Shown here piece by piece: positions 23,598-64,000 of a DNA stretch of 64,000 bases. Position 1 is the first letter of the stretch; each line of letters begins with the position of its first letter. This DNA is from Candidatus Doudnabacteria bacterium RIFCSPHIGHO2_01_48_18 (GTDB taxonomy: Bacteria; Patescibacteriota; Doudnabacteria; UBA920; 2-01-FULL-46-14). The notes beneath the pieces were generated by a model. The model was not told where the DNA came from. It ran no database searches and saw only the letters and a program-made list of their open reading frames with translations. The stretch is taken from the NCBI GenBank assembly GCA_001777515.1, contig MFEF01000003.1:53423-117422 (forward strand), read 5' to 3'. Both the position numbers and the translations under genes were made by a program.

Positions 23598-23628
23598 TGA
23601 AAAGCGCTCCGGTTTTCCAGAGCGCTTA
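23598..23628 (-). terminator. Putative terminator of the pilus operon (AAGCGCTC...GAGCGCTT hairpin)
   Basis: 7-8-bp stem overlapping the stop of 23626-23922, followed by a T-rich tract on the minus strand. Confidence 0.35.
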
Positions 23629-23922
23629 GAACTCGGCCAGCGGATCGTCCTTACCGCCTGTCAGGCTTTGGAGTTGATAGCCCGGCACTTGGTAAAGCTG
23701 GCTTTGATCCATAGAATCGCGAACTTTTTCAAATGCTTTAAAATTCAAAACCTGCGCCGAGGAGGTCCCTGTTGTATCAGATTTTTTTGTCACACTCAGA
23801 TACCCGTATTTATAAAGGGCAAACAGTTCCGCTAAAATCGCGATCACGGAAAGCGCAGACAGCACAATAGGAAGCGGCGGCGGTTTTATTCTTTTCAAAA
23901 ATCTAAATTTCGGCTTTTTCAT
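23626..23922 (-). CDS. Small membrane protein, last gene of the pilus operon
   Basis: 98 aa with an N-terminal TM helix; 4-bp overlap with the upstream gene. Confidence 0.45.
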   Translation of the reverse strand: MKKPKFRFLKRIKPPPLPIVLSALSVIAILAELFALYKYGYLSVTKKSDTTGTSSAQVLNFKAFEKVRDSMDQSQLYQVPGYQLQSLTGGKDDPLAEF

Positions 23923-24551
23923 GGTTTTTGAATAAATAACAATCCATCAACCTGGGTAAACGCGTTTCCAGTATTGCGCGTGTCCCCTCCCGGTTCAGAT
24001 GATTGCACGGATTCGGCGGCCAAGGATAGCTTCCCTACGCGGGTGATGAATGGCAGATTTTCCAAGTACAATAGGAAATTTACGGTTTGCCTGTAACTGC
24101 CGAAATAGTCGAGCTGATAGGGAATCTCTTCTGCGCCGGTTAACTCTTTTATAACAGCCTGTCTGGCAGGGGGTTTGCTGCTCGCGCTGACTGCGGCTTG
24201 TTCTTCATGGTCAGTCAGAACCAAAGTGTGGGAACCAGCTGATCTGGCAACAGCGCCTTCCAGGCCTTCAATCAAGGTCAACACGTTTTCCCGCTTGGAA
24301 AAAATTTCGGGCATGGTGTCGCTTCCGGTAAGCTTCTTGAGGTTTGCTTGCACCTCTTGGTAACTTTGTATCTCCGATCGCACCTGCGCTATCCGTTGTT
24401 GTTTCTGATCGATCTCAGATTTGATGCTGCTCACCGCATCAGTTTGCGGAAGCAAGCCGAAAAAGACGAGGAGCGCGGACGCGACGATGATAGCTCCTAT
24501 TGTGAGAGCTATCCGAGCTTGATGAAAGGAATTGAGAGGAGAAAGCGTCAT
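23919..24551 (-). CDS. PilO-like pilus assembly protein (bitopic, coiled coil)
   Basis: 210 aa with an N-terminal TM helix, a coiled coil and a C-terminal domain. Position after PilM-PilN is the canonical order. Confidence 0.5.
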   Translation of the reverse strand: MTLSPLNSFHQARIALTIGAIIVASALLVFFGLLPQTDAVSSIKSEIDQKQQRIAQVRSEIQSYQEVQANLKKLTGSDTMPEIFSKRENVLTLIEGLEGAVARSAGSHTLVLTDHEEQAAVSASSKPPARQAVIKELTGAEEIPYQLDYFGSYRQTVNFLLYLENLPFITRVGKLSLAAESVQSSEPGGDTRNTGNAFTQVDGLLFIQKP

Positions 24552-24552
24552 G

Positions 24553-25095
24553 CTATTTCACAAAAAATCTATACTGCCAAGCCACATTGCTTGGTTTTTC
24601 CAGATTAGCTAAAGGAAAATTTATATTTTTGAAACGCTCGGAGGCAATGAGCGCTTGCCTAAACGATAAAACTGAATTGCGGTTTGAGGCACGACCAGCG
24701 ATCTCGATCCTGCCAGTTGATTGATCTACCGTAAGACGATCCAGCGTGAGATCGGCAGGCATTTTCTGAGCGATCTCTGTCAGTATCCCAGACAGCTTTC
24801 CCTGTTTCTTTTCTAATATTTCAAAATTTGCCAGCTCCGCGTTGAACCGCTCTACCTCTTTGCGAAACGCTGAAGTCTCAAGGCTGTTCAGCAATCCAGT
24901 CTCCCTGGCCAGTTCTTCCCGGGTTTGCTTCACCTCGATGTTCAGATAAAACCTAATCGCCAAAAAAATAGCTATTAACACCGCGAGAGAAATCAGCAGT
25001 CTAATCCCAAAATCACGAATCTGCTGATTGACCTGCATGATTCGCAGTTCCTGCTGTTCAACTGGAGGCAGTAAATTTATGTACCTTTTGATCAT
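24553..25095 (-). CDS. pilN: Type IV pilus assembly protein PilN
   Basis: N-terminal INLLP motif then a TM helix; 180 aa. Confidence 0.7.
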   Translation of the reverse strand: MIKRYINLLPPVEQQELRIMQVNQQIRDFGIRLLISLAVLIAIFLAIRFYLNIEVKQTREELARETGLLNSLETSAFRKEVERFNAELANFEILEKKQGKLSGILTEIAQKMPADLTLDRLTVDQSTGRIEIAGRASNRNSVLSFRQALIASERFKNINFPLANLEKPSNVAWQYRFFVK

Positions 25096-26240
25096 CTATC
25101 TTCCTCCCGAAGCGCTAGGCCAATGGCTGTTGCGTATGAAAGTGAATCTTCGCGAGACAATGGTGGAACCTGCCGCTTTTTCAAAACCTTGACCCACGGG
25201 TTGCCAAGCTCAACTTTTATTCCAGGCAGTGAGCGTAATGGATGATCGCCCCCGGTGTCTTGAGCGAGCTTTTCTGCCAAAAACGATGGCAAATGTTTTA
25301 GCTTGCTTGATCCTCCGGACAGTAGAATCCGCGACACTTTACTAGTCGCGGTAGAATGTTCCTCATAGAATCGGATGATATTTTTAACCTCTGATACGAG
25401 ATTGTTGAAAACAGGAGACAGAGCCCGCTTGACCGCCCCATTGTCCTTACTTTCGTCCAATCCGTTTTTCCTTTTTATTTTTTCCGCCTCGTCCGAATTT
25501 ATGCCTAGAGCTTTCGCAACACTTTCCGTGAACACGTTTCCGGCAATCGGGATGGAGCTGGTGAATTGCAGCGTGTCCTCATCATAAACAATAAAGCTCG
25601 TACGCAGGGTGTTGATGTCCAAAATGAGTACTGTTTCTTCCAGCCTGGAAACCAGGCTGCGCGCCGTGGCCTGCGATTCGATTTCAAGGGCGATCGGCTG
25701 CAGCTGCGCTTCCTTTAAAATGCGGGTAAAATCGTCAACATAATCTTTTGGAGCGGCCGTGATCAGCACGGTCATTTTATCCTGCTGACCAAGAGCTCCA
25801 GGAACAGAGTGCGAAGGTAAAACCACCCAATCGAGATATACCTGTCCGATTGGCATTGGAATATAGGCCTCTGCTTCCCATGGGATAGCTTCCTTTGCTT
25901 CATCCATTGAAACCGCAGGCATCTGGATAACTCGCACGAAACATTTTGTTTCAGGAATAGACGCGACAACATAAGGCGTTGTCACCTTGCCGAACTTCGG
26001 CATGGAGATCGCTTTTTTGATGAGCCGAGTCAGCCCTTTGGGATCTTTTATCGAATCAGCTGAGATAAGCTCCTTGGGTATGATTTCGTCGGAATACGCC
26101 TGCACGCGAAAATTACTCTGATTTTTTTCAAATTCGAAAAGTTTCAAAGACACATCGCTGATGTCCAAACCCAAAGCATTTTTCTTTTTGCCGCCAAAAC
26201 TAAACATCAATTTATTTTTGCTGTTTATTTCAAAAATCAA
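25092..26240 (-). CDS. pilM: Type IV pilus assembly ATPase-like protein PilM (actin-like)
   Basis: ALGLDISDVSLKL N-terminus and actin/FtsA-like fold signatures; 382 aa. Confidence 0.8.
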   Translation of the reverse strand: MIFEINSKNKLMFSFGGKKKNALGLDISDVSLKLFEFEKNQSNFRVQAYSDEIIPKELISADSIKDPKGLTRLIKKAISMPKFGKVTTPYVVASIPETKCFVRVIQMPAVSMDEAKEAIPWEAEAYIPMPIGQVYLDWVVLPSHSVPGALGQQDKMTVLITAAPKDYVDDFTRILKEAQLQPIALEIESQATARSLVSRLEETVLILDINTLRTSFIVYDEDTLQFTSSIPIAGNVFTESVAKALGINSDEAEKIKRKNGLDESKDNGAVKRALSPVFNNLVSEVKNIIRFYEEHSTATSKVSRILLSGGSSKLKHLPSFLAEKLAQDTGGDHPLRSLPGIKVELGNPWVKVLKKRQVPPLSREDSLSYATAIGLALREEDR

Positions 26241-26281
26241 ACTTCAGTGACTAATATTATAGCACAAATTCATTTTTTTGT

Positions 26282-27631
26282 CTAATTTATCTCTCGCCAT
26301 GTGCCACGCAATATTTCCCAAGAGCCGCCAGGACCAGAATCAAGCTGTAAATTCGCCAGACCAGTCTCATAAATCACGCGGGCTGTGTTGTTTATATTAA
26401 GACGGTACGCTGTGACTTCTCTTATCGTTACGTTGTTGGAAATATTGACTTCTCCGTTTGGAGCATAAGCAATCAAAGTATTGGCACTATTATTGATGCT
26501 AAATGCTCCCCCTGTCGGTAAAGCAACCATCATAATATAGCTATCAGGACCGGCTTTTTGAAACTGAACAGAATTGCTAGTGCTCACGCTTCCGTCTGAG
26601 ACGATCACTTCACTAAGATTACCATAAGAGCTGTCCAGGGCAATGGTAGCCGAGTTTGACAAACTGACAGTTCCGGTAACCCACAGTGGGCCTGTCAAAG
26701 TGATTTTTGCGGAATTCGATAGAGACAAATTGCCCACGATCTTTTTGGGACCCAATGTCATTTGTGTGGTTCCTGAAAGAGATAATCCTCCACTAATCAC
26801 ACCTCCCGCTTCCGCCTGATTCTTCCAGTCAGTAATTTGCGCATCCGGGATCGGAAAAGGCTGTATTGCAGGATCCGCTTCACCGGCGTACGGTGTGGTC
26901 ACGCTTCCACCAACTGTGCATCCGGTCCGTGAAGCATAAAACGCATCGCCTGCTATCGTACAACTGGAAATTGTATTCATAAATGCACTTCCGTTAACCG
27001 TGGCCCCGCTAAGAGTGTGTCCAAACGCGCTTCCCCCCACAATATTGTTACGCACACTGTGCGCATAGGCAGCTCCATTCACATCAACGCCGTCGATCAG
27101 ACCGGCTCCCCCCGCAGAATAAGCGTCACCTGTAACATACGGCGAATTACTTCCGGTTATGGGTCCGTTGGAATAAACATTTCCTTCAATACTGGCAGTG
27201 TTGCTCATCTGCAAACCTCCTGCGCCGACTTGGACACCATAATTAAAACTGACAGTGGCCGTACCAATACTTGCCTGGGCTTTGACCTGTTTGGTAAGCT
27301 GGGGAGCGGCCTTGTTCGGTATATAAGCTGTCACGGTAATGTCTTTTACATTACCGGAAACATTAGTGACACTGACGTCAAACTCTCCGCTTCCGAGCAC
27401 TGTTCCGGTCTCCCCGGTGTAGGACCCTGCAGTGGCATTGAGTTGATGCAAGGCTCTGTCTATTCCCGCGTCAGCGATTTGAATGGCCTGTTCGTTAGCC
27501 ACAGCGATCCGCGACGCGCGCGAGTTTTGAGAGACATATTGCATGAGGCTCGCGACCAAAACCAGAATAATCGTGAAAAATATAACGGCGATGATTAGGA
27601 CCTGTCCGTCTTGTTTTGTTTTTATGTTCAT
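26282..27631 (-). CDS. PilX-like minor pilin/pilus-associated protein with a G/S/T/N-rich beta-repeat region
   Basis: The N-terminus GQVLIIAVIFFTIILVLVASLMQYVSQNSRASRIAVANEQAIQIADAGIDRAL matches the PilX_N pattern. A long low-complexity beta-rich region follows. Confidence 0.55.
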   Translation of the reverse strand: MNIKTKQDGQVLIIAVIFFTIILVLVASLMQYVSQNSRASRIAVANEQAIQIADAGIDRALHQLNATAGSYTGETGTVLGSGEFDVSVTNVSGNVKDITVTAYIPNKAAPQLTKQVKAQASIGTATVSFNYGVQVGAGGLQMSNTASIEGNVYSNGPITGSNSPYVTGDAYSAGGAGLIDGVDVNGAAYAHSVRNNIVGGSAFGHTLSGATVNGSAFMNTISSCTIAGDAFYASRTGCTVGGSVTTPYAGEADPAIQPFPIPDAQITDWKNQAEAGGVISGGLSLSGTTQMTLGPKKIVGNLSLSNSAKITLTGPLWVTGTVSLSNSATIALDSSYGNLSEVIVSDGSVSTSNSVQFQKAGPDSYIMMVALPTGGAFSINNSANTLIAYAPNGEVNISNNVTIREVTAYRLNINNTARVIYETGLANLQLDSGPGGSWEILRGTWREIN

Positions 27632-28188
27632 TTGTTTCTGAGGGTGACCCGGCCTTCGACGGTTTCCGCCGCCCCCGAAGGTCCGCCCATATTAATTTGA
27701 ATAGAATAATTAACAGCGTCAGCGCTGGCCGCGTTCGGGTCATATGTAAACAAGACATCACCCAATTTATTCGTGAGTTCCACGTTTCTTGGGACGCGGG
27801 CACTCGCGGCGTCAGGAACCAGAAACAAGAGCAGCCGCAGCGGGTTTACAGAGTCTTTCGTGATGATAACATAATCGTATGTGGTCAATACCTGACCCGC
27901 GCTGTTTATACTCGGGATTTGAAAAATAACCGTGGTAGCTCCTGAGCTATAATCAACCGTGTTATAGGTATAGCTGGAAGCCACGGAAACCGCGAGTCGT
28001 CCGTATTCCAGAATCCGATCTGCGATTTGACGCGTTCCGGAAATCGCCGTAATCTCCCCGGTTTGATTGTTAAAAAAACGGTTGTTGGCAATCATTATCC
28101 CCACCACAAAAATCGCCATGAGCGCGATCAGCCCAATCACCACGACCACCTCCAGCAGAGTAAATGCGGTGTTTTTTCGGCTATTCAT
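27628..28188 (-). CDS. Type IV prepilin/pseudopilin
   Basis: Class III signal KNTAFTLLEVVVVIGLI (prepilin cleavage motif with E+5). Confidence 0.75.
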   Translation of the reverse strand: MNSRKNTAFTLLEVVVVIGLIALMAIFVVGIMIANNRFFNNQTGEITAISGTRQIADRILEYGRLAVSVASSYTYNTVDYSSGATTVIFQIPSINSAGQVLTTYDYVIITKDSVNPLRLLLFLVPDAASARVPRNVELTNKLGDVLFTYDPNAASADAVNYSIQINMGGPSGAAETVEGRVTLRNK

Positions 28189-28564
28189 TTAATCCAGAGT
28201 TACTGATCAGGGTGTCGAGCCGGACACTTTGTGTGCCTGAATTTTCAAACCACGAAACCACTACTATTGCCTGTTTTATTTCACTGTCGCCGAGATAATT
28301 TGAAACCGTGAGCTGGGCCGTAGAACTGGCAAGAGAACTCAATATCGGATAACTGAAACTGCCAGATCCGGGCAGAGACGCGAACGGCGTGTTTCTAAGC
28401 TCCTCGATTTTTTGCGCGGCCGCATGATAAGCAATGTTCCGATTTCGCGTTCCCTTAATAACCGGGAGGCTTGAAACCGCAACTCCAAACAGCAAAATCG
28501 CGACCATAACCACGGCAAGCGCGACGATCAATTCTACGAGAGAAAATCCGAAGTACCTGTTCAT
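28181..28564 (-). CDS. Type IV prepilin/pseudopilin
   Basis: Class III signal GFSLVELIVALAVV with E+5. Confidence 0.75.
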   Translation of the reverse strand: MNRYFGFSLVELIVALAVVMVAILLFGVAVSSLPVIKGTRNRNIAYHAAAQKIEELRNTPFASLPGSGSFSYPILSSLASSTAQLTVSNYLGDSEIKQAIVVVSWFENSGTQSVRLDTLISNSGLNE

Positions 28565-28566
28565 GT

Positions 28567-29778
28567 TTAAATATTTTGCGAAATGTTGTAAATAGGAAGA
28601 ATGAGACCCACGGCAAGAACACCGACCACTGCGCCAATCACCATGACTAAAATCGGTTCAATGATCGATGAAAGATTTTTTACAGTATCGTCAATTTCCG
28701 CCTCATAAAAATCCGCGACCTCTTCCAAAACCGTTTCCATCGTGCCTGACTCTTCCCCGACCTGGATCATTTGCGTGACCATCGGAGTAAACAAATGAGG
28801 ATAACGCTCGAGCGACGAAACAAGATCAACTCCAATTTTGACTTTTTCGGAAGCGTCAGCCAAAGCCTGCTGGTAATAAATATTGCTCATAGTATTACTG
28901 GTGATAGACAGCGCCTCGACAATAGGCATGCCACTCTTCAATAGACCAGTAAAGATGATTGTAAAGCGGGCTAGGTTGATTTTTTTAACCAAGGTCTTAA
29001 ACATTGGCAGCATTAAGACCAACCGGTGGAGCACTATGTGACCGCTTTGTGTTTTGCGCCAAAACAAAAAGCCCGCTATCAAACCTCCAAGACCAATTCC
29101 CACCAAGATTGAATACCTCGAAAATATATCTACCGTGGTTATTATAACTCTGGTCAAAATCGGCAAGTCAGTATCAAACTCAGCAAAAGAAGCGGTGAGT
29201 TTTGGCAACACGAACGTAAACATTAAATACCCAATGATTAGCAGGGCTACCACGACAACGGCCGGGTATGTCATTGCACCCTTGGTGCGGCGGATGAGGT
29301 TGTAATCGCGGCCTATTTGTTTCGCCAAGTACTGTAAGGTATCATCCAACTCGCCGCTTGTTTCTCCAACCTTTACCATGTTGACAAAAATCGGTGAAAA
29401 TATGCGGGGATACGCGCCAAGACTTTCCGACAAAGTTTTTCCTGATTCGACATTATGCGCGATGTCAGCAATGACGCGGCTGAAATAAGGGTTGGACATC
29501 TGCTTGGTTACCACAACCAGCGCGCGCGACACAGGCAAGCCGGCCTTCAGAGTTACAGCGAGATTTTTGGCGAAAGTCAGCTTCTCAAGGAGCGAAACGC
29601 GGCCAAGCATTGAAAAAATAGAGCCGAATTCGCGTTTGGCGCGTTTTTCTTCGATCTGCGTAGGCAGTAATCCCTGACCGCGCAGAATCTGTCCCATTGC
29701 TTCGCGCGATTCTGCCTCGCCGCTATCATTGATCGTCTGGCCCTCGCGATTTTTCGCTGTGTATGTATATTGCGGCAT
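28567..29778 (-). CDS. pilC: Type IV pilus platform protein PilC (GspF family)
   Basis: Two T2SSF repeats and 3 TM helices; 403 aa. Confidence 0.9.
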   Translation of the reverse strand: MPQYTYTAKNREGQTINDSGEAESREAMGQILRGQGLLPTQIEEKRAKREFGSIFSMLGRVSLLEKLTFAKNLAVTLKAGLPVSRALVVVTKQMSNPYFSRVIADIAHNVESGKTLSESLGAYPRIFSPIFVNMVKVGETSGELDDTLQYLAKQIGRDYNLIRRTKGAMTYPAVVVVALLIIGYLMFTFVLPKLTASFAEFDTDLPILTRVIITTVDIFSRYSILVGIGLGGLIAGFLFWRKTQSGHIVLHRLVLMLPMFKTLVKKINLARFTIIFTGLLKSGMPIVEALSITSNTMSNIYYQQALADASEKVKIGVDLVSSLERYPHLFTPMVTQMIQVGEESGTMETVLEEVADFYEAEIDDTVKNLSSIIEPILVMVIGAVVGVLAVGLILPIYNISQNI

Positions 29779-33692: not shown

Positions 33693-33799
33693 AAATTTAT
33701 TATACGACCTTTTAACATTTGCGTCAAAACCATTTTCTCATCCCGGGCCAATCTGTGCGATTATACAACAGTAACTGGCTCTGCTATAATTAGCAAAAT

Positions 33800-36250: not shown

Positions 36251-36288
36251 ATTCTACATCTATATGCAATTGCATATAGATGTAGAAT
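36251..36288. promoter_or_regulatory. Perfect 38-bp palindrome ATTCTACATCTATATGCAATTGCATATAGATGTAGAAT. Palindrome-family site 3, at the 3' end of the glycan cluster.
   Basis: Exact inverted repeat (18-bp arms). Its left half is identical to site 2852-2889. Confidence 0.5.
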
Positions 36289-40389: not shown

Positions 40390-40390
40390 A

Positions 40391-45817: not shown

Positions 45818-46020
45818 TTTTTATGGCGACGGTTGATGAGAAATACGATAAAAAAAATCAAAACCGCAAAACCGCTTAAGCCAAGACCGCGCCCATAGCC
45901 GCCTGAGAAATAATGCGACATAGTGTTTAGAATCGTGAAAAATATGGTCGCCGCTAGAAAAAACCCCGTTTTTCGCCCGGCTTTCCGGCCTGGCGCGATT
46001 TCGTTTTGGATATTAAGCAT
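45805..46020 (-). CDS. Small 2-TM membrane protein (71 aa)
   Basis: Two hydrophobic helices; overlaps neighbours, suggesting coupling. Confidence 0.4.
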   Translation of the reverse strand: MLNIQNEIAPGRKAGRKTGFFLAATIFFTILNTMSHYFSGGYGRGLGLSGFAVLIFFIVFLINRRHKKWVW

Positions 46021-46029
46021 AAACCAATA

Positions 46030-48263: not shown

Positions 48264-48273
48264 AATAATCTAT

Positions 48274-54448: not shown

Positions 54449-55230
54449 GAGATTATTCTGTGGAGTACTTTTAATACTGCCAAGGGAAATACTGCGCTCT
54501 TGTTGCCGCTTTTCTTGCGATAGTGGTAAATCTTGAGCCAATTCTTTATTTTTTGTTTAAATGACATGCGTGATGAATATTTTCTGACGAATTGATAAAT
54601 TCCTTCCGCCATTTTCGCATGATTGGTCAAACGCACCCCGCTATGGTCCCGCCATAAAACTTGATTGTCTGGAAGCGTTCCAACCGGAATAGCCGCCAAT
54701 AAAAGCTCCAGCACCAGGCTCTTGTCCTCTGAGGGCGGCAGTTTCGGATCAAAGCCTTTGGCTTCAAAAAAAATCTTTTTGGCAATGACAATATTTGATC
54801 CGGTAATGCCCGGGTTGAAAGCCAGTAGATTTTCCACAGTAAGCTTGCTGTCGGGATTTTTGAACTGTTCAATTTTTTCTCCGCGCAGCGCATCGAGCCT
54901 GGAAAGCACGCACACTGCTCCCCTGTCACACAGCTCACCGGCATTTGCTAGATAATCCCTGTTCCACAGATCATCATCATCCAGAAACGCCAGATAATCC
55001 CCGGCCGCTACCGCCGCGCCAAAATTTCTGGCTTGCGCTGCGCCAGCGTACGGCACAATGTCATAAACAGTAACCCGGCTCGCGAATTCTGATTCTAACT
55101 TTAGAGGCAGTTTGCCGTTATTTACAACGATGACCTCATCCGGCTTTCTGCTCTGCGCAAACACAGACCGCAGGGTTTCCGGCAGATATTCTGGCCTGTC
55201 ACAGGTTGGAATAATCACGCTGATTTTCAT
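54445..55230 (-). CDS. Family 2 glycosyltransferase
   Basis: ISVIIPTCDRPEYLPETLRSV and DDDD motifs. Confidence 0.85.
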   Translation of the reverse strand: MKISVIIPTCDRPEYLPETLRSVFAQSRKPDEVIVVNNGKLPLKLESEFASRVTVYDIVPYAGAAQARNFGAAVAAGDYLAFLDDDDLWNRDYLANAGELCDRGAVCVLSRLDALRGEKIEQFKNPDSKLTVENLLAFNPGITGSNIVIAKKIFFEAKGFDPKLPPSEDKSLVLELLLAAIPVGTLPDNQVLWRDHSGVRLTNHAKMAEGIYQFVRKYSSRMSFKQKIKNWLKIYHYRKKSGNKSAVFPLAVLKVLHRIIS

Positions 55231-56741: not shown

Positions 56742-58024
56742 CTGACTTTGAAAACGTCGCTGATAGGCTTACCGGCGAGGTTTTGGCGAAGCTGCTTAGT
56801 GATTAAAAGGCGCTTGAGCTTTGTAAAGACTTTTTTGTAAGCCGCAAGTATCCCATCGAGGTCTTCTTTGCTATGCGCATAGGACATATTGTGTGAGCCG
56901 CTCCACAAGAAACCCGCTTGCAGTATTTCCTGCTGAATGTAGGTTTTGATCTCCAGGGGTTTATAGCCATAGCCTTCAGAAAACAAGAACAGCTGCCACG
57001 ATGGATGCCCAGTGAGCCTGATAACATCGCCAAGGCCTGTATCTGCGATAAGTCTGCGGGTATGCTCCTGCAGATACTCGCCTTTCCTGCGAACCTTTTC
57101 GATCACGCCTTTGCGCTCGATTTCCTTGATGGTGGCAATCGCAGCGGCCAGCGAGAGAGTCTCGCCGAGATATGAACCGGAAAAGAAGATATCATTGACC
57201 TTCTCCATGTATTTCTTTTTTCCCACGAGGACCGAGAGGGGCATCCCGTTAGCAATAGATTTGCCGAAACATGCCAGATCCGGGATGACCCCAAACAATT
57301 TCTGGGCGCCACCAAGGTCAAAGCGAAAGCCAGTGATCATTTCGTCAAAAATCAGAAGAGCCCCGTGTTTATGCGCAAGATTTTTTACTTTCTGCAGGTA
57401 ATTGTCAGCTGGAAAATCAGTGTTCATTGGCTCGAGGATCACGGCCGCGACCTCATTTTTATGCTGCTTAAATATTTTCTCTAGGGATGAGATGTCATTG
57501 TAAGCAAATTTGTGGGTCAGTTTCCTTACGGCCTCAGGCACTCCAAGATATCTAGTTGTGGAACCAATATACCAATCATGCCAGCCATGATAGCCGCCGA
57601 CTGCAACATGTTCGCGGCCAGTGACCGCGCGCGCAAGACGCACCGCCGCTGAGGTCACGTCAGAGCCGGTTTTGCCGAAACGAACCATTTCCGCTCCAGG
57701 GATATGCTTGGTAATCAGCTGGGCAAGCTCGTATTCGAGAGGCGAGGGCAGCGAAAAAACAATGCCTTTGTCGAGCTGTTTTTTGATAGCATTGTCCACG
57801 GCCGGGTATTGATACCCTAAAATGATCGGCAGCAGACCATTGATCATATCCACGTATTCATGGCCGTCAATGTCCCAGACATGAGAGCCTTTCGCGTGTG
57901 TAATGAACATTGGCGCAGCACCATCAACATACACCAGATGGCTTTTGCTGAATGTTTGGGAAGCAAGCGGGATAACCTCTTTTACTTTACGGAGGAATTT
58001 GTTGCTTTTTGTGAATTTGCGCAT
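56738..58024 (-). CDS. Class-III (GSA-aminomutase-like) PLP aminotransferase
   Basis: 428 aa with AT-III fold motifs (DEMITGFR and a lysine region). Confidence 0.85.
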   Translation of the reverse strand: MRKFTKSNKFLRKVKEVIPLASQTFSKSHLVYVDGAAPMFITHAKGSHVWDIDGHEYVDMINGLLPIILGYQYPAVDNAIKKQLDKGIVFSLPSPLEYELAQLITKHIPGAEMVRFGKTGSDVTSAAVRLARAVTGREHVAVGGYHGWHDWYIGSTTRYLGVPEAVRKLTHKFAYNDISSLEKIFKQHKNEVAAVILEPMNTDFPADNYLQKVKNLAHKHGALLIFDEMITGFRFDLGGAQKLFGVIPDLACFGKSIANGMPLSVLVGKKKYMEKVNDIFFSGSYLGETLSLAAAIATIKEIERKGVIEKVRRKGEYLQEHTRRLIADTGLGDVIRLTGHPSWQLFLFSEGYGYKPLEIKTYIQQEILQAGFLWSGSHNMSYAHSKEDLDGILAAYKKVFTKLKRLLITKQLRQNLAGKPISDVFKVR

Positions 58025-58035
58025 GATTGCTAAAA

Positions 58036-58815
58036 TTAATTATTTAAAAATTTTTTATCTTCATCTAAAGCTGATTGCCAGCCCGCGTTCTGCTTGTTTT
58101 CAGAGTTGATTTGGGCGATATCAGGATTTGCCTCCAGAAATTCTACGATCTCCTGCCACCGGACAGTTCGGGCCTTATCTCCAAAATGATCGCGGATCTT
58201 TGAGAGCAGCTTATAGTCCTGAGGATAATCAAGAGTCAATCTGTATTGAGTCAATTTTCTCTCATTCTGGCAGTAATAAACCTTAAACATTTCCGGGTTT
58301 TGCCAGAAATAAAATGTCACGTGTTCCCGGTGGCTAGGAAGCTTTGCCTCTTGCCAGGCTCTTTTCAGATTTTTAAAAGAAAATACCTCAATGTCCAGAC
58401 CGTCAGGAAAGCTGTATGGCTCAAGGCTGTTGGAGACAAAATCATAATCCTTATCAAGGTAAGTCTTGATTACCTGATCGAGAAGTCGTGGATCAGAAAA
58501 TGGACAATCGCCCGTGAGCCTGACCACGACATCATCATCACCTAGGGACATACTCGCGGCGGCCTGGTAATACCGATCGAGCACATCTGTCTCGCTGCCT
58601 GCGTAATATTTTTGACCAATACTCAGTAAATAATTCACAAGGCTCTGGTCGTCTGGATTTGTAGTTGTGGCGACGAGTACGTTATCTATTAATGTCGCCT
58701 GCTTCACGCGGTCCAGCATGAAACTCAATACCGTATGCCCTTTGCCAAATGGCAGGAGGACTTTCTTGGGAAGCCTGGTGGAGCCGAGCCTGGCTTGTAT
58801 GATAACTAAAACCAT
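58036..58815 (-). CDS. Cytidylyltransferase (SpsF/PseF/NeuA-like CMP-sugar synthetase family)
   Basis: LVIIQARLGSTRLPKKVL N-terminal motif. Confidence 0.8.
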   Translation of the reverse strand: MVLVIIQARLGSTRLPKKVLLPFGKGHTVLSFMLDRVKQATLIDNVLVATTTNPDDQSLVNYLLSIGQKYYAGSETDVLDRYYQAAASMSLGDDDVVVRLTGDCPFSDPRLLDQVIKTYLDKDYDFVSNSLEPYSFPDGLDIEVFSFKNLKRAWQEAKLPSHREHVTFYFWQNPEMFKVYYCQNERKLTQYRLTLDYPQDYKLLSKIRDHFGDKARTVRWQEIVEFLEANPDIAQINSENKQNAGWQSALDEDKKFLNN

Positions 58816-59534
58816 TTGTGATAATCTATTGCGCTCGCAGTGATTCTAAATCCCGCTCCCTGATAGAGCCGCTGCGAAACAATATTTCTCCCTTCGGTTA
58901 CTACTTCGAATTTATCAAAACCTTGTTTGCGCATTTCATTCAAAAACTCTGTGAGCATAATCTTACCGATCCCCTGTCCCTGAAACTTGCGATTTACCCC
59001 AATCAATGTCAGGCTGATACCTGCGGCTGTTTGTTTGTAGCCGATGTATCCTGCAATTTTTTTCTTGTCAGCCAAAACATAAATGCCATGATCTTTTTTA
59101 CCTGACCCGAGATTTTTCATCCACTGGATATAAAGCTGATCACATGCTTTTCTGGAAAAATGCTTATCAAAATAAAACCTGCTTGCGGTATAGAGATTTT
59201 TTGAAATACGGGAAAGTTCCGGTAAATCCATTTTCCGGCATTGACGCAAGATAAAATTTGCTTTGCCAATTTTTGCTGGTCTATAACCCATATCTGTCTC
59301 AAGCATATAGGTCACCCGAAAATTGGAGAAATGAAAACCGTACTGCTCCGCCAAGTCGACAATTTTGCCATCATCAGCTGGTGCCCGGTAAAATAAACAT
59401 CTGATTTTGTTCTTTTTGCAAAATTGCAATACACGCTTCATGTCAGCGTCAGTGATACGCGAGCGGTTCAAGCGGGCAATATTGAACCCAAAAAAATCAC
59501 TGTCCCAATTAAGTTTTTCAACTAAGGCTGTCAT
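58806..59534 (-). CDS. GNAT-family N-acetyltransferase (PseH-like position)
   Basis: FQGQGIGKIMLTEFL acetyl-CoA binding motif. Confidence 0.75.
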   Translation of the reverse strand: MTALVEKLNWDSDFFGFNIARLNRSRITDADMKRVLQFCKKNKIRCLFYRAPADDGKIVDLAEQYGFHFSNFRVTYMLETDMGYRPAKIGKANFILRQCRKMDLPELSRISKNLYTASRFYFDKHFSRKACDQLYIQWMKNLGSGKKDHGIYVLADKKKIAGYIGYKQTAAGISLTLIGVNRKFQGQGIGKIMLTEFLNEMRKQGFDKFEVVTEGRNIVSQRLYQGAGFRITASAIDYHKWF

Positions 59535-60301
59535 GCTAATATTTCCTTTAATTTTTTCAGCATCAAGATGAGCTTCTTATCATCTTTGTAGTACTCCAGT
59601 GTCATATACTGCAAATTGGGACACCGTGACACAAGCTTTCTAACCATGTCCCAATCGTCGTCCTCAAGCGATTCATGGATGTCCTTGGCGAGTGTTTCAT
59701 TTTTGTCGGGGCGGCTGATGTGCATCTGTATGGCGCGGTCCAGGTTTAATCTTCCTAAATAATCCTCCAGTGCGATCTTTTTGTTAATGGCAGTGATTTG
59801 CGCGTGCGCCATATCCAGTAAGAATTTCATATCAAATTCAGACATCAGTTTATTTAGAAACTCAGGTGTGGTGACGATCTCATATGCCCCTGTTGGGTAA
59901 TAGTTGGTATTTTCTACGCCTTTTTGAAATTTGCGCCCAACTGCCGTCTCTAATTTTTCTAGATTTCTGCGGGCATTCCCTATGAGTTCTGATTCCGCAA
60001 GCTTTTCGCCCGAGGGCACGAACATGTCATCCTCAATCGGCGGCTTGAAGTAGCAAGAGTTAACATGAAAAGTCACCAGCTGCGGATTGTTACTGCGAAT
60101 TATATTGGCAATTTTTTCGACTTCTTCCGCAGACCACACATCCACAACACTCCAGTCACAGTGATATATGCGCGGCAAATCGCTCTCGATCGGGTTTGAG
60201 TATTCTCTCAGCTCCACAACGTCTGATAGCTCCAAAATCTCTTTCTGCAATGAAGAGTTGTTAAAGAGTTTTGAGATGGGAGTAGCAATCTTTGGCTTCA
60301 T
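59531..60301 (-). CDS. Hypothetical protein, possibly a xylose-isomerase-like TIM barrel
   Basis: 256 aa with weak VEN.../LLDMAHA motifs. No confident assignment. Confidence 0.35.
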   Translation of the reverse strand: MKPKIATPISKLFNNSSLQKEILELSDVVELREYSNPIESDLPRIYHCDWSVVDVWSAEEVEKIANIIRSNNPQLVTFHVNSCYFKPPIEDDMFVPSGEKLAESELIGNARRNLEKLETAVGRKFQKGVENTNYYPTGAYEIVTTPEFLNKLMSEFDMKFLLDMAHAQITAINKKIALEDYLGRLNLDRAIQMHISRPDKNETLAKDIHESLEDDDWDMVRKLVSRCPNLQYMTLEYYKDDKKLILMLKKLKEILA

Positions 60302-60317
60302 AATCCTTGCTAGATAT

Positions 60318-61151
60318 TTACGTTTCCCGGCGATAAATCCTGATCGGTTCCTCCACTGGGAGGGATTTGATTTCGCCGTTTCCCAGCATGGTTTCCAGCT
60401 GGCGGATTTTCTCTACTAACTCCTTTATATCTCCGCCGTCAGCCGACATGCTGTGGTCAGCTCCGCTTCTCGTTTTGTCAGTAGTAAAATGCTTTTCAAT
60501 GATCCTAGCACCAAGCGCTACCGCGTACACGCACGCCTCAGCGCCTAGCGTATGGTCCGAATATCCGACTGGGCAGGAATAATTTTGCAGCAGAGAATTG
60601 ATAATGTTCAGGTTGACCTCTTCTTTTGGCGCCGGGTACGACGACACACAGTGGAGAATCGCGTACTCGGTCCCGTATTTTTCAAAAATCTTCACTGCCG
60701 TGTCAATCTCCTCGCGGCTTGCCATGCCCCGCGAGATGATCGTTGGTGTGCCGGTTTTGGCCACAGCCTCGAGAAGCACCTTGTTAACGATATCAAACGA
60801 GGCAATCTTCATCAGCGGCACCTCAAGGCTCTGTAAAAACTCTGCCGCCTCAGGATCAAATGGCGTGGAAAAAAACATTAAGCCTTTTTGGTCTGCGTAC
60901 TCTTTGATTTTTCGCTGCTGGTCATAAGAAAGCTCGCGCTGTTTCAGACCCGCAAAAATCGGAGAATCAGCTTTGGCCCGCTTTTCCGCGGTATAGGTTT
61001 GAAATTTGATCGCGCTTGAGCCAGCCGCTTTCGCTGTGTCCACCATTTTGAAGGCGAGATCAAGATCGCCATCATGGTTAATGCCAGCTTCCGCAATAAT
61101 AAATGTTGGCTTGTTCCGGCCGATATTCAATTCTATAAATTTTTTTGACAT
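60318..61151 (-). CDS. NeuB-family ulosonic/nonulosonic acid synthase (second copy; PseI/LegI/NeuB-like)
   Basis: PTFIIAEAGINHDGDLDLAFKMVDTAKAAGSSAIKFQ signature. Confidence 0.85.
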   Translation of the reverse strand: MSKKFIELNIGRNKPTFIIAEAGINHDGDLDLAFKMVDTAKAAGSSAIKFQTYTAEKRAKADSPIFAGLKQRELSYDQQRKIKEYADQKGLMFFSTPFDPEAAEFLQSLEVPLMKIASFDIVNKVLLEAVAKTGTPTIISRGMASREEIDTAVKIFEKYGTEYAILHCVSSYPAPKEEVNLNIINSLLQNYSCPVGYSDHTLGAEACVYAVALGARIIEKHFTTDKTRSGADHSMSADGGDIKELVEKIRQLETMLGNGEIKSLPVEEPIRIYRRET

Positions 61152-61190
61152 ATGCTTAATTAATCGTTTTGAGACAAGAAATTGGCAAAA

Positions 61191-61958
61191 TTATTGATTA
61201 AGTGTGAAGCCGCCGTCGATAACAATATTTTGCCCTGTAATATAGCCTGAATCGTCTGAGGCCAAAAAACAGACTGTGCCAACCAGGTCATCAGTATAAG
61301 TCATGCGCTTCATCGGCGTTTTTTCCAGAAAATTATCTATGAATACTTGTTTCTGGTTATTAAACACTCCGCCCGGACTAATCGCGTTGACAGTAATGTT
61401 ATGCTCGCCGAGATAAGCGGCTAGATATCTAGTCAGCTGAATAATCCCAGCTTTGGTAGCCGCATAAATATCAGAGCTGTTGCGGCCGGAATCCCCATAG
61501 ATCTTTTTGTCAGCAGGCACAACTCCATACATTGAAGCAGTATTGATGATTTTGCCGCTCTTGATTTTGATCATTTTGCGGGAGAAGATTTTCGAACAAA
61601 GAATCGTGCCTTTGATGTTGACCTTCATCACATTGTCTATTTCCTCTTCAGTACGCTGCTCGAACGGCGTGAAAACCGCGATACCGGCATTGTTGATGAG
61701 GACACCCACATCGCTAGCCTCGGCAGCGCATGCTTCGACCGATTTTTCGCTCGTTACATCGAGTTTTATGTATTTATAATCTGCAAGTCCTTTGTCAGCT
61801 AGCGCTTTGGCAAAATCGTTATTTATTTCGTCCTGAATGTCAGTGATGTAAACAAATGCTTTACTCTCCAGCAAAGCCGTCACGAACGCCTGACCAAGCT
61901 GGCCATTGGCTCCAGTAACAAGAATTTTCTTACCTTTTAGATCGTATTGGTTCTTCAT
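61191..61958 (-). CDS. Short-chain dehydrogenase/reductase (SDR)
   Basis: TGANGQLG motif plus YAATK. Confidence 0.85.
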   Translation of the reverse strand: MKNQYDLKGKKILVTGANGQLGQAFVTALLESKAFVYITDIQDEINNDFAKALADKGLADYKYIKLDVTSEKSVEACAAEASDVGVLINNAGIAVFTPFEQRTEEEIDNVMKVNIKGTILCSKIFSRKMIKIKSGKIINTASMYGVVPADKKIYGDSGRNSSDIYAATKAGIIQLTRYLAAYLGEHNITVNAISPGGVFNNQKQVFIDNFLEKTPMKRMTYTDDLVGTVCFLASDDSGYITGQNIVIDGGFTLNQ

Positions 61959-61963
61959 GGTGG

Positions 61964-62497
61964 TTATGAATTAGGATTAAATTTTGCTAACCGAACTTCA
62001 TCCATAAAACCATCCCTGCTCCGACTATGTTCTTTTAAAACCGCTTCTTCATGAAAACCGTTTTTCAAAAAAGCTTTGATTGACCCCTGGTTCGCGCTAT
62101 AAGCTCCGGCAATGATCTTGTGAAGCCCCAATTTTTCAAAACCATAATCACTGATGAGTCGGATGGCTTCCGTGGCAAAACCCTGACCCCACGAATCTTT
62201 GTCTCCGATCATGATGCCAATCTCGCCGCGGCTGTGACCAGCATGCACTGGTCCGAGTTTGATAGTACCTATCATTTTATCGCTATCTTTTCTGACAATC
62301 GCAAAAAAATATGTGTTTGACTCAGCATTGCGGTCCGCAATATATTGCTTAACGCTCTCCATGGTGTGCGTTTGAAAACGGCTTTCCATGTACTGGTTGA
62401 CCTCAGGGTTGTTTAACCAGACGGGGTACTCTGCTGTAGCATCATCATCAGTCAGCGGCCACAATTTTATTTTTTCACCGTCCAGGGTCACGTTCAT
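61964..62497 (-). CDS. GNAT-family N-acetyltransferase (RimL-like)
   Basis: 177 aa with a GNAT core and WGQGFATEA motif. Confidence 0.8.
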   Translation of the reverse strand: MNVTLDGEKIKLWPLTDDDATAEYPVWLNNPEVNQYMESRFQTHTMESVKQYIADRNAESNTYFFAIVRKDSDKMIGTIKLGPVHAGHSRGEIGIMIGDKDSWGQGFATEAIRLISDYGFEKLGLHKIIAGAYSANQGSIKAFLKNGFHEEAVLKEHSRSRDGFMDEVRLAKFNPNS

Positions 62498-62499
62498 AA

Positions 62500-64000
62500 T
62501 TAATTATTCTGAATAATATTATACGTTCTAAAAAAATAGGAATTCTTGTCCGCCAGCAGCGCTTTTGGTTCTCCCTGCTCGACCAGTTTGCCGTTTTCCA
62601 GAACTAAAAGTTTATCCGAATCCATAACCGTTGATAAACGGTGCGCGATAGCCAGAACTGTTATCCTGCCTTTGAGGTTTTTGATAACCTTTTGAATCTG
62701 CGCCTCGGATTCGTTATCAAGCGAGCTGGTCGCTTCATCGAGAATCAATATCTCTGGTTTGCGGGCAAGGACGCGCGCAAGCACAACGCGCTGCCGTTCT
62801 CCACCGGACAAACGAACACCGCGTTCGCCAATCACGGTGTCGTACCCTTGCGGCAAACTAAGAACAAAATCGTGGATATTGGCCATGAGAGCTGCTTTTT
62901 CTATTTCTGTCTTAGAAATATTTTTATTGTAAAATCTGATATTATTTTCGATTGTGTCGTTGATGAGGAAAATATCCTGGGAAACGTAGCCAATTTTCTT
63001 GCGCCACTCCGCAAGCGAAATCTCGGAAATATTTCGCCCATCGAGCAATATTGCGCCGCTTGTAGGCTCAAACAAGCGCAGAAGCAAATCAACAAGAGTT
63101 GTCTTTCCCGCGCCGGAAGGACCAATCAGTCCGATAAGCGATCCTCGCTGGATAACCAAGTCTACGTTAGACAAGACGTAAGCGCTGCCGTCATGAGCAA
63201 ACGAAACATCATCAAATCTCAATTCCCTAGCAAACTCAAATCCGCCTCGTCCGCTGTCTATTTCTGGATTGGTATTGGCTTTAGTCTCATAATGCAGGAC
63301 ACTCTGCACGTGCGGTGAAAAATCGCTTACGGCGTGAGCGATGCGTTGAACCTGCTGAGAATAAACGAACATGCGCTGCACAAGGTAAACAATGGCGATC
63401 AATACCGCGAGATTGAAATCGGGGCGCTGATACGTAGTCGCAAAAATCAAGGACACAAATATAACAGCAATCGGTTCAGTAACCGCGTTGGTTATGCTTT
63501 TTAGAAACGGGACTTGCAGTGTTGAGAAACGAAGCTTACGAAAAATGCCGCGGCCTTTACTCGCGACTTCGGCTGCCACATACATAGTTTTTACAGTTTT
63601 GACGCCAAAGATGTTTTCTGATACATGGTGCGCGCTTTCTTTCATGTGCCTGTTGCGCTCGATCGCCAGAGTATTGATGCGTTTCAAAAATGGCCGGAAC
63701 ACAAAAAACAACAAAGTTCCCAAACCTAAGGTCATGAGGGTTATCGGCGCTGAAATGTTAAAAGCAAAAAATACATAAATCAGCAGTCCCGTGATCACCA
63801 TAATTCCGCCAGCAATTTGCTCCAAGAACTTCGCGCTAGTCGGAACATCGATCGCAAGAATAGTCTCCAAAACTCCGAGTTTTTGTCGCATGAGGTGAGT
63901 CCAGCTAGAGTTAAGAACCTTTTCAAACAGCCGGGCCCTCGTCTGCTCTTCATAATCTGTGGTAATGCGGATCTTCAAATAGTCAATCAAAATCGTCAGC
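62500..64000 (-). CDS. ABC exporter, fused TMD-NBD (MsbA/PglK-like flippase-type). The N-terminus lies beyond the window edge.
   Basis: TM helices followed by Walker A GPSGAGKTT, signature LSGGERQR and Walker B ILILDEAT. Confidence 0.85.
   Translation of the reverse strand, partial: LTILIDYLKIRITTDYEEQTRARLFEKVLNSSWTHLMRQKLGVLETILAIDVPTSAKFLEQIAGGIMVITGLLIYVFFAFNISAPITLMTLGLGTLLFFVFRPFLKRINTLAIERNRHMKESAHHVSENIFGVKTVKTMYVAAEVASKGRGIFRKLRFSTLQVPFLKSITNAVTEPIAVIFVSLIFATTYQRPDFNLAVLIAIVYLVQRMFVYSQQVQRIAHAVSDFSPHVQSVLHYETKANTNPEIDSGRGGFEFARELRFDDVSFAHDGSAYVLSNVDLVIQRGSLIGLIGPSGAGKTTLVDLLLRLFEPTSGAILLDGRNISEISLAEWRKKIGYVSQDIFLINDTIENNIRFYNKNISKTEIEKAALMANIHDFVLSLPQGYDTVIGERGVRLSGGERQRVVLARVLARKPEILILDEATSSLDNESEAQIQKVIKNLKGRITVLAIAHRLSTVMDSDKLLVLENGKLVEQGEPKALLADKNSYFFRTYNIIQNN

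Follow-up and report, generated by a model that had tools for sequence, protein, structure and literature searches.

All known O-oligosaccharyltransferases carry a Wzy_C domain with an essential histidine (PMC9829042). The pilin-specific enzymes TfpO/PilO, TfpM and PglS of Pseudomonas and Moraxellaceae are linked to type IV pilus genes, transfer their glycan en bloc from a lipid carrier, and are encoded immediately downstream of their own major pilin gene (PMC9829042). In the monoderm Paenibacillus alvei, the S-layer O-oligosaccharyltransferase WsfB combines Wzy_C with a C-terminal TPR domain, an architecture also described for the S-layer enzyme WsaB, with WsaA, in Geobacillus stearothermophilus, likewise a monoderm; the usual ligands of TPR domains are proteins or peptides (PMC2943079). 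TacL, the lipoteichoic acid ligase of S. pneumoniae, is a Wzy_C-type ligase which acts on an undecaprenyl-pyrophosphate-linked polymer and serves lipid acceptors in monoderms (PMC5727136). PglL, the general enzyme of Neisseria, Burkholderia and Acinetobacter, has the Wzy_C fold with its conserved histidine, and its glycan specificity is relaxed. In Neisseria, pilin is one among many PglL substrates. The Wzy_C Pfam family includes polymerases too. For CPR bacteria, the only statement on surface-protein glycosylation found is a GlycoPP prediction for the pilins of TM7x (PMC12206443).

The locus considered here lies in a 64-kb stretch of DNA (the window) whose sequence matches Doudnabacteria at 100%, in agreement with a CPR lineage. 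On its minus strand, at 31524–33692, the window encodes a 722-residue candidate for a glycan ligase or O-oligosaccharyltransferase. The Wzy_C match reaches 76.7 bits (cut-off 31.7) and is accompanied by a TPR match, and the gene ends 4 bp upstream of pilB; domains and position are both as given in a preliminary description of this DNA. The AlphaFold2 model (pLDDT 88.4, pTM 0.86) has a WaaL fold, with 12 WaaL-like transmembrane helices, a 13th helix at residues 458–478, a conserved outer loop at residues 278–359 and the TPR domain at residues 498–721. From the 13 helices and their Lys/Arg-rich alternate loops, the N-terminus is predicted to lie inside and the TPR domain outside the cell. When aligned with E. 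coli K-12 WaaL by hhalign, at a modest probability of 55% and with an ambiguous equivalent for R288, R231 falls on R215 and H358-N359 on H338-N339. The outer loop is the most conserved segment (55–61% identity versus 31–46% in the remainder), and the TPR domain is kept across the whole family. The membrane domain as sole query retrieves 1,934 cluster representatives at E<=1e-30; among the best 150 of these, most are 700–900 residues long. A profile check for PglL_A (PF15864), suggested earlier, came out negative, as did one for Wzy_C_2 (PF11846), both in the query and in 120 homologues. An NCBIfam scan found no PglL family model at E <= 0.001, and the sole membrane-domain match was a weak one to IctB. 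Sequence comparison supports a Wzy_C/WaaL-fold enzyme with conserved Arg and His. It belongs to a CPR family that is widespread but uncharacterised, and is likely to be an O-oligosaccharyltransferase or a ligase that transfers its glycan en bloc.

The closest precedent found appears to be WsfB. The two share their described domain architecture, a monoderm host, and the combination of a WbaP/WsaP-type hexose-1-phosphate transferase with an undecaprenyl-pyrophosphate-linked glycan; WsaB is alike in these respects. They differ in their surroundings: the Doudnabacteria locus showed neither an S-layer gene nor the context of an S-layer glycosylation cluster, and the gene instead heads a type IV pilus operon. 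The system had been called previously undescribed, which is partly right, although Wzy_C with a C-terminal TPR domain was already known from WsfB (PMC2943079). The pilin-specific enzymes share the Wzy_C domain and the pilus linkage, but their hosts are diderm, and the description of TfpO and TfpM includes neither the extra transmembrane helix nor the TPR domain of about 225 residues (PMC9829042). WaaL, at 15% identity, likewise differs by the added 13th helix and TPR domain, and this monoderm CPR bacterium has no lipid A-core. TacL is not known to have a TPR domain.

The genes of the pilus operon were assigned by Pfam matches, and those for PilB, PilC, two prepilins, PilM and PilN all lie where they had been placed. 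All are on the minus strand: PilB, the assembly ATPase (29780–31519; T2SSE 430 bits, with an MshEN N-domain), the platform protein PilC (28567–29778; T2SSF 211 bits), PilM (25092–26240; 163 bits) and PilN (24553–25095). The prepilins, of 127 residues (28181–28564; signal G/FSLVE; GspI/PilV-type) and 186 residues (27628–28188; signal A/FTLLE), have N_methyl matches and are minor-pilin-like; their family matches are weak and fall in minor-pilin families only (GspI, ComGF, ComGE). They are the only open reading frames with class-III signals in the 64 kb. A third gene (26282–27631, minus strand) encodes a PilX/GspK-like large minor pilin of 449 residues with a repeat-rich C-terminal part. It had been described as PilX_N-like; the gene is present, but PilX_N scores 17.8 bits against a cut-off of 25.5, DUF7305 is also below threshold, and so is the match to GspK. 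Similarly, the proposed PilO-like protein exists as a bitopic protein of 210 residues (23919–24551, minus strand), but its T2SSM/GspM-like match is weak; its homologues give a faint PilO match. The last gene of the operon (23626–23922, minus strand) encodes a 98-residue single-transmembrane protein; L055 and L061 have such a gene at the same operon position, compared by position and length only, and tblastn found no match to it in the loci tested. No major pilin, PilD or PilT was found within the window. The operon has no secretin, as the preliminary description had stated, and none was found in the rest of the window.

Consensus matches, which are not measurements, suggest how these genes may be transcribed. 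A promoter-like site (TTGACG-17-TATAAT, 11/12 matches; 33699–33727, minus strand) lies directly upstream of the ligase gene, and a terminator-like hairpin (11 pairs, 7 G-C; 23602–23627, minus strand) lies at the end of the operon. Within the operon the only other promoter-like site is just upstream of pilM (26256–26284, 11/12 matches). Given the 4-bp gap, and a promoter-like site that precedes the ligase gene but not pilB itself, co-transcription of the ligase gene and the pilus genes is very probable in this genome.

Divergent from the ligase gene, and 107 bp away, is the initiating phosphoglycosyltransferase gene proposed earlier (33800–35173, plus strand), faced by a promoter-like site with 10/12 matches (33762–33790, plus strand). 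Its product is a large WbaP/WcaJ-type polyprenyl-phosphate hexose-1-phosphate transferase (Bac_transf 220 bits; NCBIfam TIGR03025 402 bits, cut-off 295). The sugar genes (36314–64000) do form the single-strand cluster described, but this minus-strand block is convergent with the phosphoglycosyltransferase gene, not downstream of it, and has the same direction as the pilus operon. At its lower-coordinate end is the gene for a 733-residue fusion of an N-terminal polyprenyl-phosphate glycosyltransferase (DPMS/ArnC/GtrB-like), about 10 transmembrane helices and a C-terminal domain (36314–38515). The GDP-sugar module (38508–41581) encodes an Fcl-like reductase, GDP-mannose 4,6-dehydratase and a DegT protein in which His replaces the catalytic Lys; the substitution and the adjoining genes suggest that the DegT protein is a 3-dehydratase of ColD type and the sugar colitose-like, not perosamine-like as first suggested. 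Decoration genes follow (41612–47397), for a CYTH membrane protein, two membrane-anchored GDSL/SGNH proteins and a carbamoyltransferase. Two ulosonic-acid modules flank a group of transferase genes (52476–56741) for two weak BFO_1060-like glycosyltransferases (426 and 504 residues), a methyltransferase and a GT2 enzyme. Module 1 (47394–52495) encodes NeuB, a GmhA-like SIS isomerase, a cytidylyltransferase fused to a KdsC/Kdn-9-P-phosphatase-like domain, two SDRs and a xylose-isomerase-like TIM barrel. Module 2 (56738–62497) encodes a class III aminotransferase, a cytidylyltransferase, a GNAT, an MNIO/MbnB-like protein, NeuB, an SDR and a second GNAT. NeuB-type synthases are present, but both score under the equivalog cut-offs of the NeuB and PseI models. 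Among the window ORFs scanned, neither PseB/LegB nor a UDP-GlcNAc 2-epimerase was found; a DegT gene and an epimerase/dehydratase gene lie just past the window end. The products would be Kdn/Kdo-like ulosonic acids. The MsbA/HepA/PglK-type ABC exporter (62500–64000) had been taken for the end of the cluster; its gene is in fact an upstream one that the window truncates. In the source contig the exporter has 593 residues, and its gene follows another DegT gene and one for an epimerase. Farther upstream, the 10-kb flank holds DUF4956-VTC-CotH, a GT1 gene and two genes of unknown function.

Of 53 related CPR loci compared, about 38 keep the divergent phosphoglycosyltransferase; these come from Doudna-, Kuenen-, Falkow- and Uhrbacteria. 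Linkage to pilB is found only in Doudnabacteria-type genomes, in 12 loci (the window, L001–L008, L027, L032 and L055), so the pilus linkage noted earlier is real but restricted to this lineage. An S8 peptidase/FG-GAP gene occupies the pilB position in about 22 other loci, where the ligase orthologues have 34–41% identity and conserved TPR domains, and certain other orthologues have neither gene next to them. By genomic context, the conserved partner of the ligase is the phosphoglycosyltransferase rather than the pilus. The glycan genes beside the ligase vary from genome to genome. Conserved pairing with variable glycan genes is the pattern expected if the ligase tolerates different donors while the reducing-end sugar and the acceptor stay the same; the relaxed specificity of PglL would suit such variable clusters. 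In other genomes a Wzx flippase lies beside the same pair, and polymerised glycans are conceivable there.

The acceptor can be read in several ways. A dedicated pilin O-oligosaccharyltransferase, modifying type IV pilins and/or the PilX-like protein in the manner of TfpO, TfpM and PglS, is doubtful. The gene is the first of the pilus operon, with a shared promoter-like site, and the ligase–pilB order recurs wherever a Doudnabacteria-type locus has sufficient flank, even where ligase identity falls to 33%; the Wzy_C domain with its conserved His and the TPR domain predicted outside the cell would fit, and Wzy_C enzymes are established pilin glycosylators (PMC9829042). However, holA, which is functionally unrelated, is syntenic to an equal degree, which makes adjacency weak evidence. 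Most relatives have a gap of about 100 bp or more (96–203 bp), and the pair is interrupted in L006 by the phosphoglycosyltransferase gene. The feature that defines TfpO, its place immediately downstream of the major pilin gene (PMC9829042), is where the analogy breaks down, as this gene lies upstream of pilB with no major pilin in the window. A check of the adjoining minor-pilin-like proteins for C-terminal acceptor patches found no conserved Ser/Thr (they end in ...LRNK and ...GLNE). The TPR domain is conserved despite differing neighbours, which speaks for an acceptor that does not depend on the gene next door.

A non-protein acceptor is similarly tentative: the enzyme would transfer a glycopolymer onto a membrane glycolipid or wall-linked anchor, like TacL or WaaL, with the TPR domain as a scaffold. 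The closest solved structure is WaaL (Cupriavidus metallidurans, 7TPG/7TPJ), TacL offers a monoderm precedent, the pairing with a WbaP/WcaJ-type 'EPS' phosphoglycosyltransferase would be just as usual in a polysaccharide pathway, and some related loci have Wzx. Yet the matched WaaL structures have no TPR domain, whereas here this typically protein- or peptide-binding domain is conserved family-wide, and the window showed no recognisable genes of teichoic-acid or lipid-anchor type. Least probable by far is a Wzy-type polymerase that joins repeat units into a capsule or exopolysaccharide. Family membership would allow it, and no Wzy or other polytopic polymerase besides the 722-residue protein was found in the window; but polymerases co-vary with their repeat unit, while this protein keeps 35–60% full-length conservation over deep CPR lineages beside differing glycan clusters. 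It also retains the WaaL-type Arg and His, and the window has a PglK/MsbA-type exporter and neither Wzx nor Wzz.

The favoured reading, with a probability of roughly 0.55, is that an extracytoplasmic WaaL-fold transferase moves a finished glycan en bloc from undecaprenyl pyrophosphate to a cell-surface acceptor, most likely one or more proteins, and that with the divergent hexose-1-phosphate transferase it would form the conserved core of a surface-glycosylation pathway widespread in CPR. By family membership, the phosphoglycosyltransferase would prime undecaprenyl phosphate; cytoplasmic glycosyltransferases of the adjacent, genome-specific cluster would build a short, heavily decorated oligosaccharide, here from a colitose-like GDP-sugar and two CMP-ulosonic acids; and the PglK/MsbA-type exporter would flip it. 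The outer loop of the ligase (R231, R308, H358) is proposed to transfer the glycan to an acceptor held by the outward TPR domain. Since no sequence feature separates protein- from lipid-directed Wzy_C enzymes, the acceptor class is argued only from the TPR domain and precedent, by which the enzyme is most likely a WsfB-like O-oligosaccharyltransferase of secreted or surface proteins.

The preliminary interpretation is thus partly supported: the enzyme, its pairing and a very probable co-transcription are supported, and the pilus linkage is lineage-restricted. Because the ligase gene heads, and is probably co-expressed with, the pilus operon in Doudnabacteria, pilus proteins are candidate substrates, and pilin glycosylation as a lineage-specific link is plausible. 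In this Doudnabacteria genome, from within the CPR, a credible candidate for a surface-glycosylation enzyme is thus encoded between the initiating and sugar-synthesis genes on one side and the type IV pilus genes on the other.

The ORF listing and the profile searches bore out the gene map of the preliminary description. On the minus strand, in transcription order, the gene for a 722-aa membrane protein with Wzy_C and C-terminal TPR domains (31524–33692; hereafter the ligase) is followed by those for PilB (29780–31519), PilC (28567–29778), two proteins with prepilin N-methylation signals (28181–28564 and 27628–28188), a 449-aa protein (26282–27631) and, further downstream, PilM, PilN and a PilO/GspM-like protein recognised by profile searches. 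The last gene of the pilus operon encodes a 98-aa single-TM protein (23626–23922), for which no family match was found; a gene matching it in position and length only occupies the same place in two related CPR loci (L055 and L061). Divergently, on the plus strand, lies a Bac_transf phosphoglycosyltransferase gene (33800–35173), whose start is 107 bp from that of the ligase gene. From 36314 on, the window is taken up to its end by an unbroken minus-strand block of genes for sugar nucleotides, transferases and decoration. A hypothetical protein of Candidatus Doudnabacteria bacterium RIFCSPHIGHO2_02_FULL has the same sequence as the ligase (100% identity), so the small-genome monoderm lineage that had been guessed is the right one. 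A MacAB-like set (9375–12977, minus strand; HlyD-family adaptor, FtsX permease and ABC ATPase) is also present in this presumed monoderm.

The pilus genes make up a monoderm-type type IVa set of PilB, PilC, PilM, PilN, PilO and minor pilins, and, as had been stated, none of the scanned window ORFs matched a secretin. A Pfam and class-III-signal scan of the window likewise found no major pilin, PilD or PilT, and the 10-kb flanks on either side hold no recognisable pilin. The only ORFs with class-III signals in the 64 kb are the two prepilins, both about 3 kb from the ligase gene, and these show weak matches to minor-pilin families only (GspI, ComGF and ComGE). They terminate in ...GLNE and ...LRNK, endings which are kept in relatives, and a conserved C-terminal Ser/Thr is absent from the linked pilins of the window and of the relatives compared. 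The 449-aa protein, previously likened to PilX, gives matches to PilX_N, DUF7305 and GspK that are all sub-threshold. A check of the pilin C-termini for Ser/Thr-rich acceptor patches had been proposed. No conserved patch was found in the PilO-like protein or the minor pilins; the Ser/Thr/Ala/Pro-rich stretch of the PilO-like protein is a variable linker without a conserved motif, and was rejected as evidence.

The HMM check on 31524–33692 confirmed Wzy_C (PF04932; residues 219–377, 76.7 bits against a gathering cut-off of 31.7) and TPR. PglL_A, which had been named for the same check, is absent: neither PglL_A (PF15864) nor Wzy_C_2 (PF11846) matches the ligase at E ≤ 0.01, and both are missing from the precomputed Pfam lists of 120 homologues. 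NCBIfam offered no informative family, with a weak IctB match only. The predicted structure has the 12-helix fold of WaaL, in which a large outer loop precedes helix 10. By hhalign against E. coli K-12 WaaL, at a probability of only 55%, R231 aligns with R215 and H358-N359 with H338-N339; both R231 and H358 recur in 95% or more of 36 sequences. R308 is a likely candidate for the equivalent of WaaL R288, its assignment being ambiguous. The outer loop (residues 278–359) bears the motifs GYGxEN and WFDRAHN and is the best-conserved part of the ligase, at 55–61% identity between lineages. Searched against PDB sequences, the full-length family profile retrieved TPR proteins only, and the membrane domain alone gave no match at E ≤ 10; the relationship to WaaL thus rests on the fold and the hhalign comparison.

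Beyond the twelve WaaL-like helices lie a disordered linker, a 13th hydrophobic helix (458–478) and an all-helical TPR domain (498–721). Lys/Arg-rich segments occupy alternate loops of the membrane domain (66–75, 128–136, 205–213, 252–258 and 389–397) while the conserved motifs sit in the opposite set, from which we infer an N-in topology that would place the TPR domain outside, beside the catalytic loop. The TPR domain is conserved across all lineages. The membrane domain alone retrieves 1,934 cluster representatives at E ≤ 1e-30, and most of the best 150 of these are 700–900 aa long and so carry a C-terminal extension. A combination of Wzy_C and C-terminal TPR is known from Paenibacillus alvei, in its S-layer O-oligosaccharyltransferase WsfB (PMC2943079), which the ligase resembles in its Wzy_C membrane domain, its C-terminal TPR, its monoderm host and its hexose-1-phosphate transferase partner.

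That partner, the phosphoglycosyltransferase, scores 220 bits with Bac_transf (PF02397) and 402.5 bits with TIGR03025 (cut-off 295.55). With Bac_transf, an N-terminal TM block, CoA_binding_3 and the subfamily model all present, and with four hydrophobic segments, it has the make-up of a large WbaP/WcaJ-type hexose-1-phosphate transferase. The sugar cluster had been placed downstream of it; the cluster is indeed a single-strand block, but it is convergent with the phosphoglycosyltransferase gene. Between the two convergent ends stands a perfect 38-bp palindrome (36251–36288), probably a bidirectional terminator and the only element returned by a repeat scan of the intergenic regions. Nor does the cluster end in the ABC exporter, as had been thought: the exporter gene is cut by the window end, encodes 593 aa in the source contig and has another DegT gene and one for an epimerase upstream of it. 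Still further upstream in the 10-kb flank come, as possible members of the cluster, two uncharacterised genes as well as a DUF4956-VTC-CotH triad with a GT1 gene (L057, 640–3505).

The sugars of the cluster appear to differ from those first proposed. The DegT protein at 40391–41581 (minus strand) gives similar scores with ColD, E1 dehydrase and perosamine synthase, and has a His aligned to the Schiff-base Lys of the aminotransferases. This Lys-to-His change is a hallmark of ColD/E1 3-dehydratases and suggests a ColD-type GDP-4-keto-6-deoxymannose 3-dehydratase. Taken with the adjacent genes for an Fcl-like reductase and for GDP-mannose 4,6-dehydratase, it suggests that the sugar is a colitose-like 3,6-dideoxyhexose and not the GDP-perosamine-like one of the preliminary description. 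Of the nonulosonate pathway claimed, two NeuB matches (Pfam, 261 and 265 bits) and two CTP_transf_3 matches are present. The NeuB proteins are short (277 and 289 aa) and fall below the equivalog cut-offs of both NeuB_NnaB (255 and 297 bits against 399.65) and PseI (203 and 254 bits against 340.25), and the window ORFs scanned yielded neither a Polysacc_synt_2 dehydratase, as needed for Pse or Leg, nor an Epimerase_2, as needed for Neu5Ac or Leg. Next to one NeuB gene are those for a cytidylyltransferase with a fused KdsC/Kdn-9-phosphate-phosphatase-like domain and for a GmhA-like isomerase. These neighbours point to a phosphosugar route and a Kdn/Kdo-like or higher ulosonic acid rather than to pseudaminic acid.

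The module in question (47394–52495, minus strand) also encodes SDRs and a xylose-isomerase-like TIM barrel beside the NeuB, the phosphoheptose isomerase and the fusion. The SIS-NeuB-HAD-cytidylyltransferase set recurs in L055 (2345–7453), there adjoining the phosphoglycosyltransferase/ligase pair, and the ulosonic acid made may be unusual. Within the sugar-nucleotide genes, between a GNAT gene and a NeuB gene, lies a gene for an MNIO (MbnB/DUF692)-like protein (59531–60301, minus strand), whose family is known to act in the maturation of peptides (RiPPs). Weak matches to the BFO_1060 glycosyltransferase family, the prefix presumably denoting Tannerella forsythia, are shown by two soluble proteins (426 and 504 aa). 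A nonulosonic-acid transferase, which may or may not be BFO_1060, is known from T. forsythia (PMC5420450). At the near end of the block, 36314–38515 (minus strand) encodes a 733-aa fusion with a DPMS/ArnC/GtrB-like polyprenyl-phosphate glycosyltransferase domain, about ten TM helices and an unmodelled C-terminal domain; the related locus L008 (6306–8555) has such a fusion as well. Related CPR proteins fuse the same kind of N-domain to PMT_2, PMT or YfhO domains, and the fusion could be part of a second, GT-C-type route of extracytoplasmic glycosylation.

Fifty-three loci were collected from a scan of GTDB species representatives and were then searched with the window proteins and with the S8/FG-GAP protein of locus L054. 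About 38 of them, from Doudna-, Kuenen-, Falkow- and Uhrbacteria, have the divergent phosphoglycosyltransferase. Adjacency of the ligase and pilus genes is conserved in one group only: in Doudnabacteria-type genomes (the window, L001–L008, L027, L032 and L055), among which ligase identity falls to 33%, pilB-pilC comes next after the ligase gene. In some 22 loci of another clade, a gene for an S8 peptidase/FG-GAP protein of about 740 aa (38–61% identity) lies downstream of the ligase gene instead, and a third group has neither. The S8/FG-GAP-linked loci are of Kuenen-, Falkow- and Uhrbacteria type (for example L054 5365–7590 and L056 12263–14452); no S8/FG-GAP homologue was found in the window. 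In a neighbour-joining ligase tree without bootstrap, the S8-linked loci form essentially one cluster (for one member, L021, the contig does not reach the downstream gene), and those linked to pilB fall into two clades. Next to the phosphoglycosyltransferase gene, the gene content varies between genomes: NeuB, SIS and HAD in L055; YfhO, Wzx, GT1 and a methyltransferase in L061; radical-SAM and GT2 in L056; Wzx, GT1 and Asn-synthase in L060.

Gene order as such is conserved in the pilB-linked group, where the unrelated gene holA is also syntenic downstream of the pilus operon wherever the flank reaches, and adjacency alone is therefore weak evidence of shared function. The ligase–pilB gap is 0–25 bp in the closest relatives of the window only and 96–203 bp in six others, and in L006 the phosphoglycosyltransferase gene stands between the two. 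In L055, the pilus operon is followed by three genes of opposite orientation (18004–20369, minus strand) that encode 123, 452 and 202 aa; by size alone, they would be a relocated minor-pilin cassette (127, 449 and 186 aa in the window). In L001, where about 100 bp separate pilC from pilM, tblastn matched nothing in the gap. Within the window, the top promoter-like site of the 23–36.5 kb region (33727–33699, 11/12 matches) is just upstream of the ligase gene, a second points at the phosphoglycosyltransferase gene and a third precedes pilM. Beyond the 98-aa gene stands a strong terminator-like hairpin. An Rfam search returned four tRNAs only. As no promoter- or terminator-like element intervenes between the ligase gene and pilB, co-transcription of the two in this genome is predicted as likely.

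We favour a general surface-glycosylation ligase with a protein acceptor, pilins being possible targets, at a probability of roughly 0.55. The conserved initiating transferase, the intact catalytic loop of the WaaL fold, the variable cluster and the PglK/MsbA-type exporter argue for a ligase or oligosaccharyltransferase of relaxed donor specificity and conserved acceptor, and a polymerase is very improbable; no Wzx, Wzy or Wzz was found in the window. A monoderm CPR cell lacks lipid A-core, which leaves proteins, membrane glycolipids and wall polymers as acceptors. TacL, a Wzy_C-type ligase with a lipid acceptor, makes the lipid alternative a real one in monoderms (PMC5727136). Nevertheless, the outward TPR domain found in all lineages and the same architecture in WsfB tilt the balance towards proteins, and we give a lipid or wall-polymer ligase a low probability.

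A dedicated pilin enzyme resembling TfpO, the core of the original proposal, is also unlikely. The genes for TfpO, TfpM and PglS lie immediately downstream of their cognate major pilin gene (PMC9829042), whereas the ligase gene is upstream of pilB in a window without a major pilin. The acceptor of TfpO and TfpM is the terminal Ser/Thr of the cognate pilin, unlike the ...GLNE and ...LRNK ends of the linked minor-pilin-like proteins here; the ligase differs from PglL in lacking its specific domains; and orthologues with an equally conserved TPR adjoin unrelated genes in other CPR lineages. What stands of pilin O-glycosylation is that, given the predicted co-expression with the ligase, pilins are reasonable candidate acceptors in Doudnabacteria. 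The system had been called previously undescribed. Our literature search found no paper on O-antigen ligases or oligosaccharyltransferases in Patescibacteria and, on CPR pilus glycosylation, a software prediction only (PMC12206443), but the kind of enzyme is known: Wzy_C ligases and O-oligosaccharyltransferases include a TPR-bearing one in a monoderm (PMC2943079). The new element is a large uncharacterised CPR enzyme family whose catalytic core is clear, whose initiating partner is conserved and whose glycan clusters are hypervariable.

More tentatively, the phosphoglycosyltransferase and Wzy_C/TPR pair might constitute a general protein O-glycosylation system of much of the CPR, a doubtful extension in which a TPR-guided oligosaccharyltransferase would place strain-variable, ulosonic-acid-capped glycans on type IV pili and other surface proteins, such as the Kuenenbacteria-type S8/FG-GAP protein. 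The CPR bacteria in cultivation all live attached to other microbes as episymbionts, a contact in which type IV pili have a central role (PMC12206443). If such a system exists, the attachment of episymbionts to their hosts and phage/host recognition would be shaped by variable glycans. The locus provides a concrete gene for glycoengineering hosts and a testable lead on episymbiont surface biology, and the combination of phosphoglycosyltransferase, ligase and variable cluster is a marker for surface-glycan diversity in CPR metagenomes. Should pilins or adhesins turn out to be the acceptors, the host specificity of these organisms would be linked with a glycan locus that varies.
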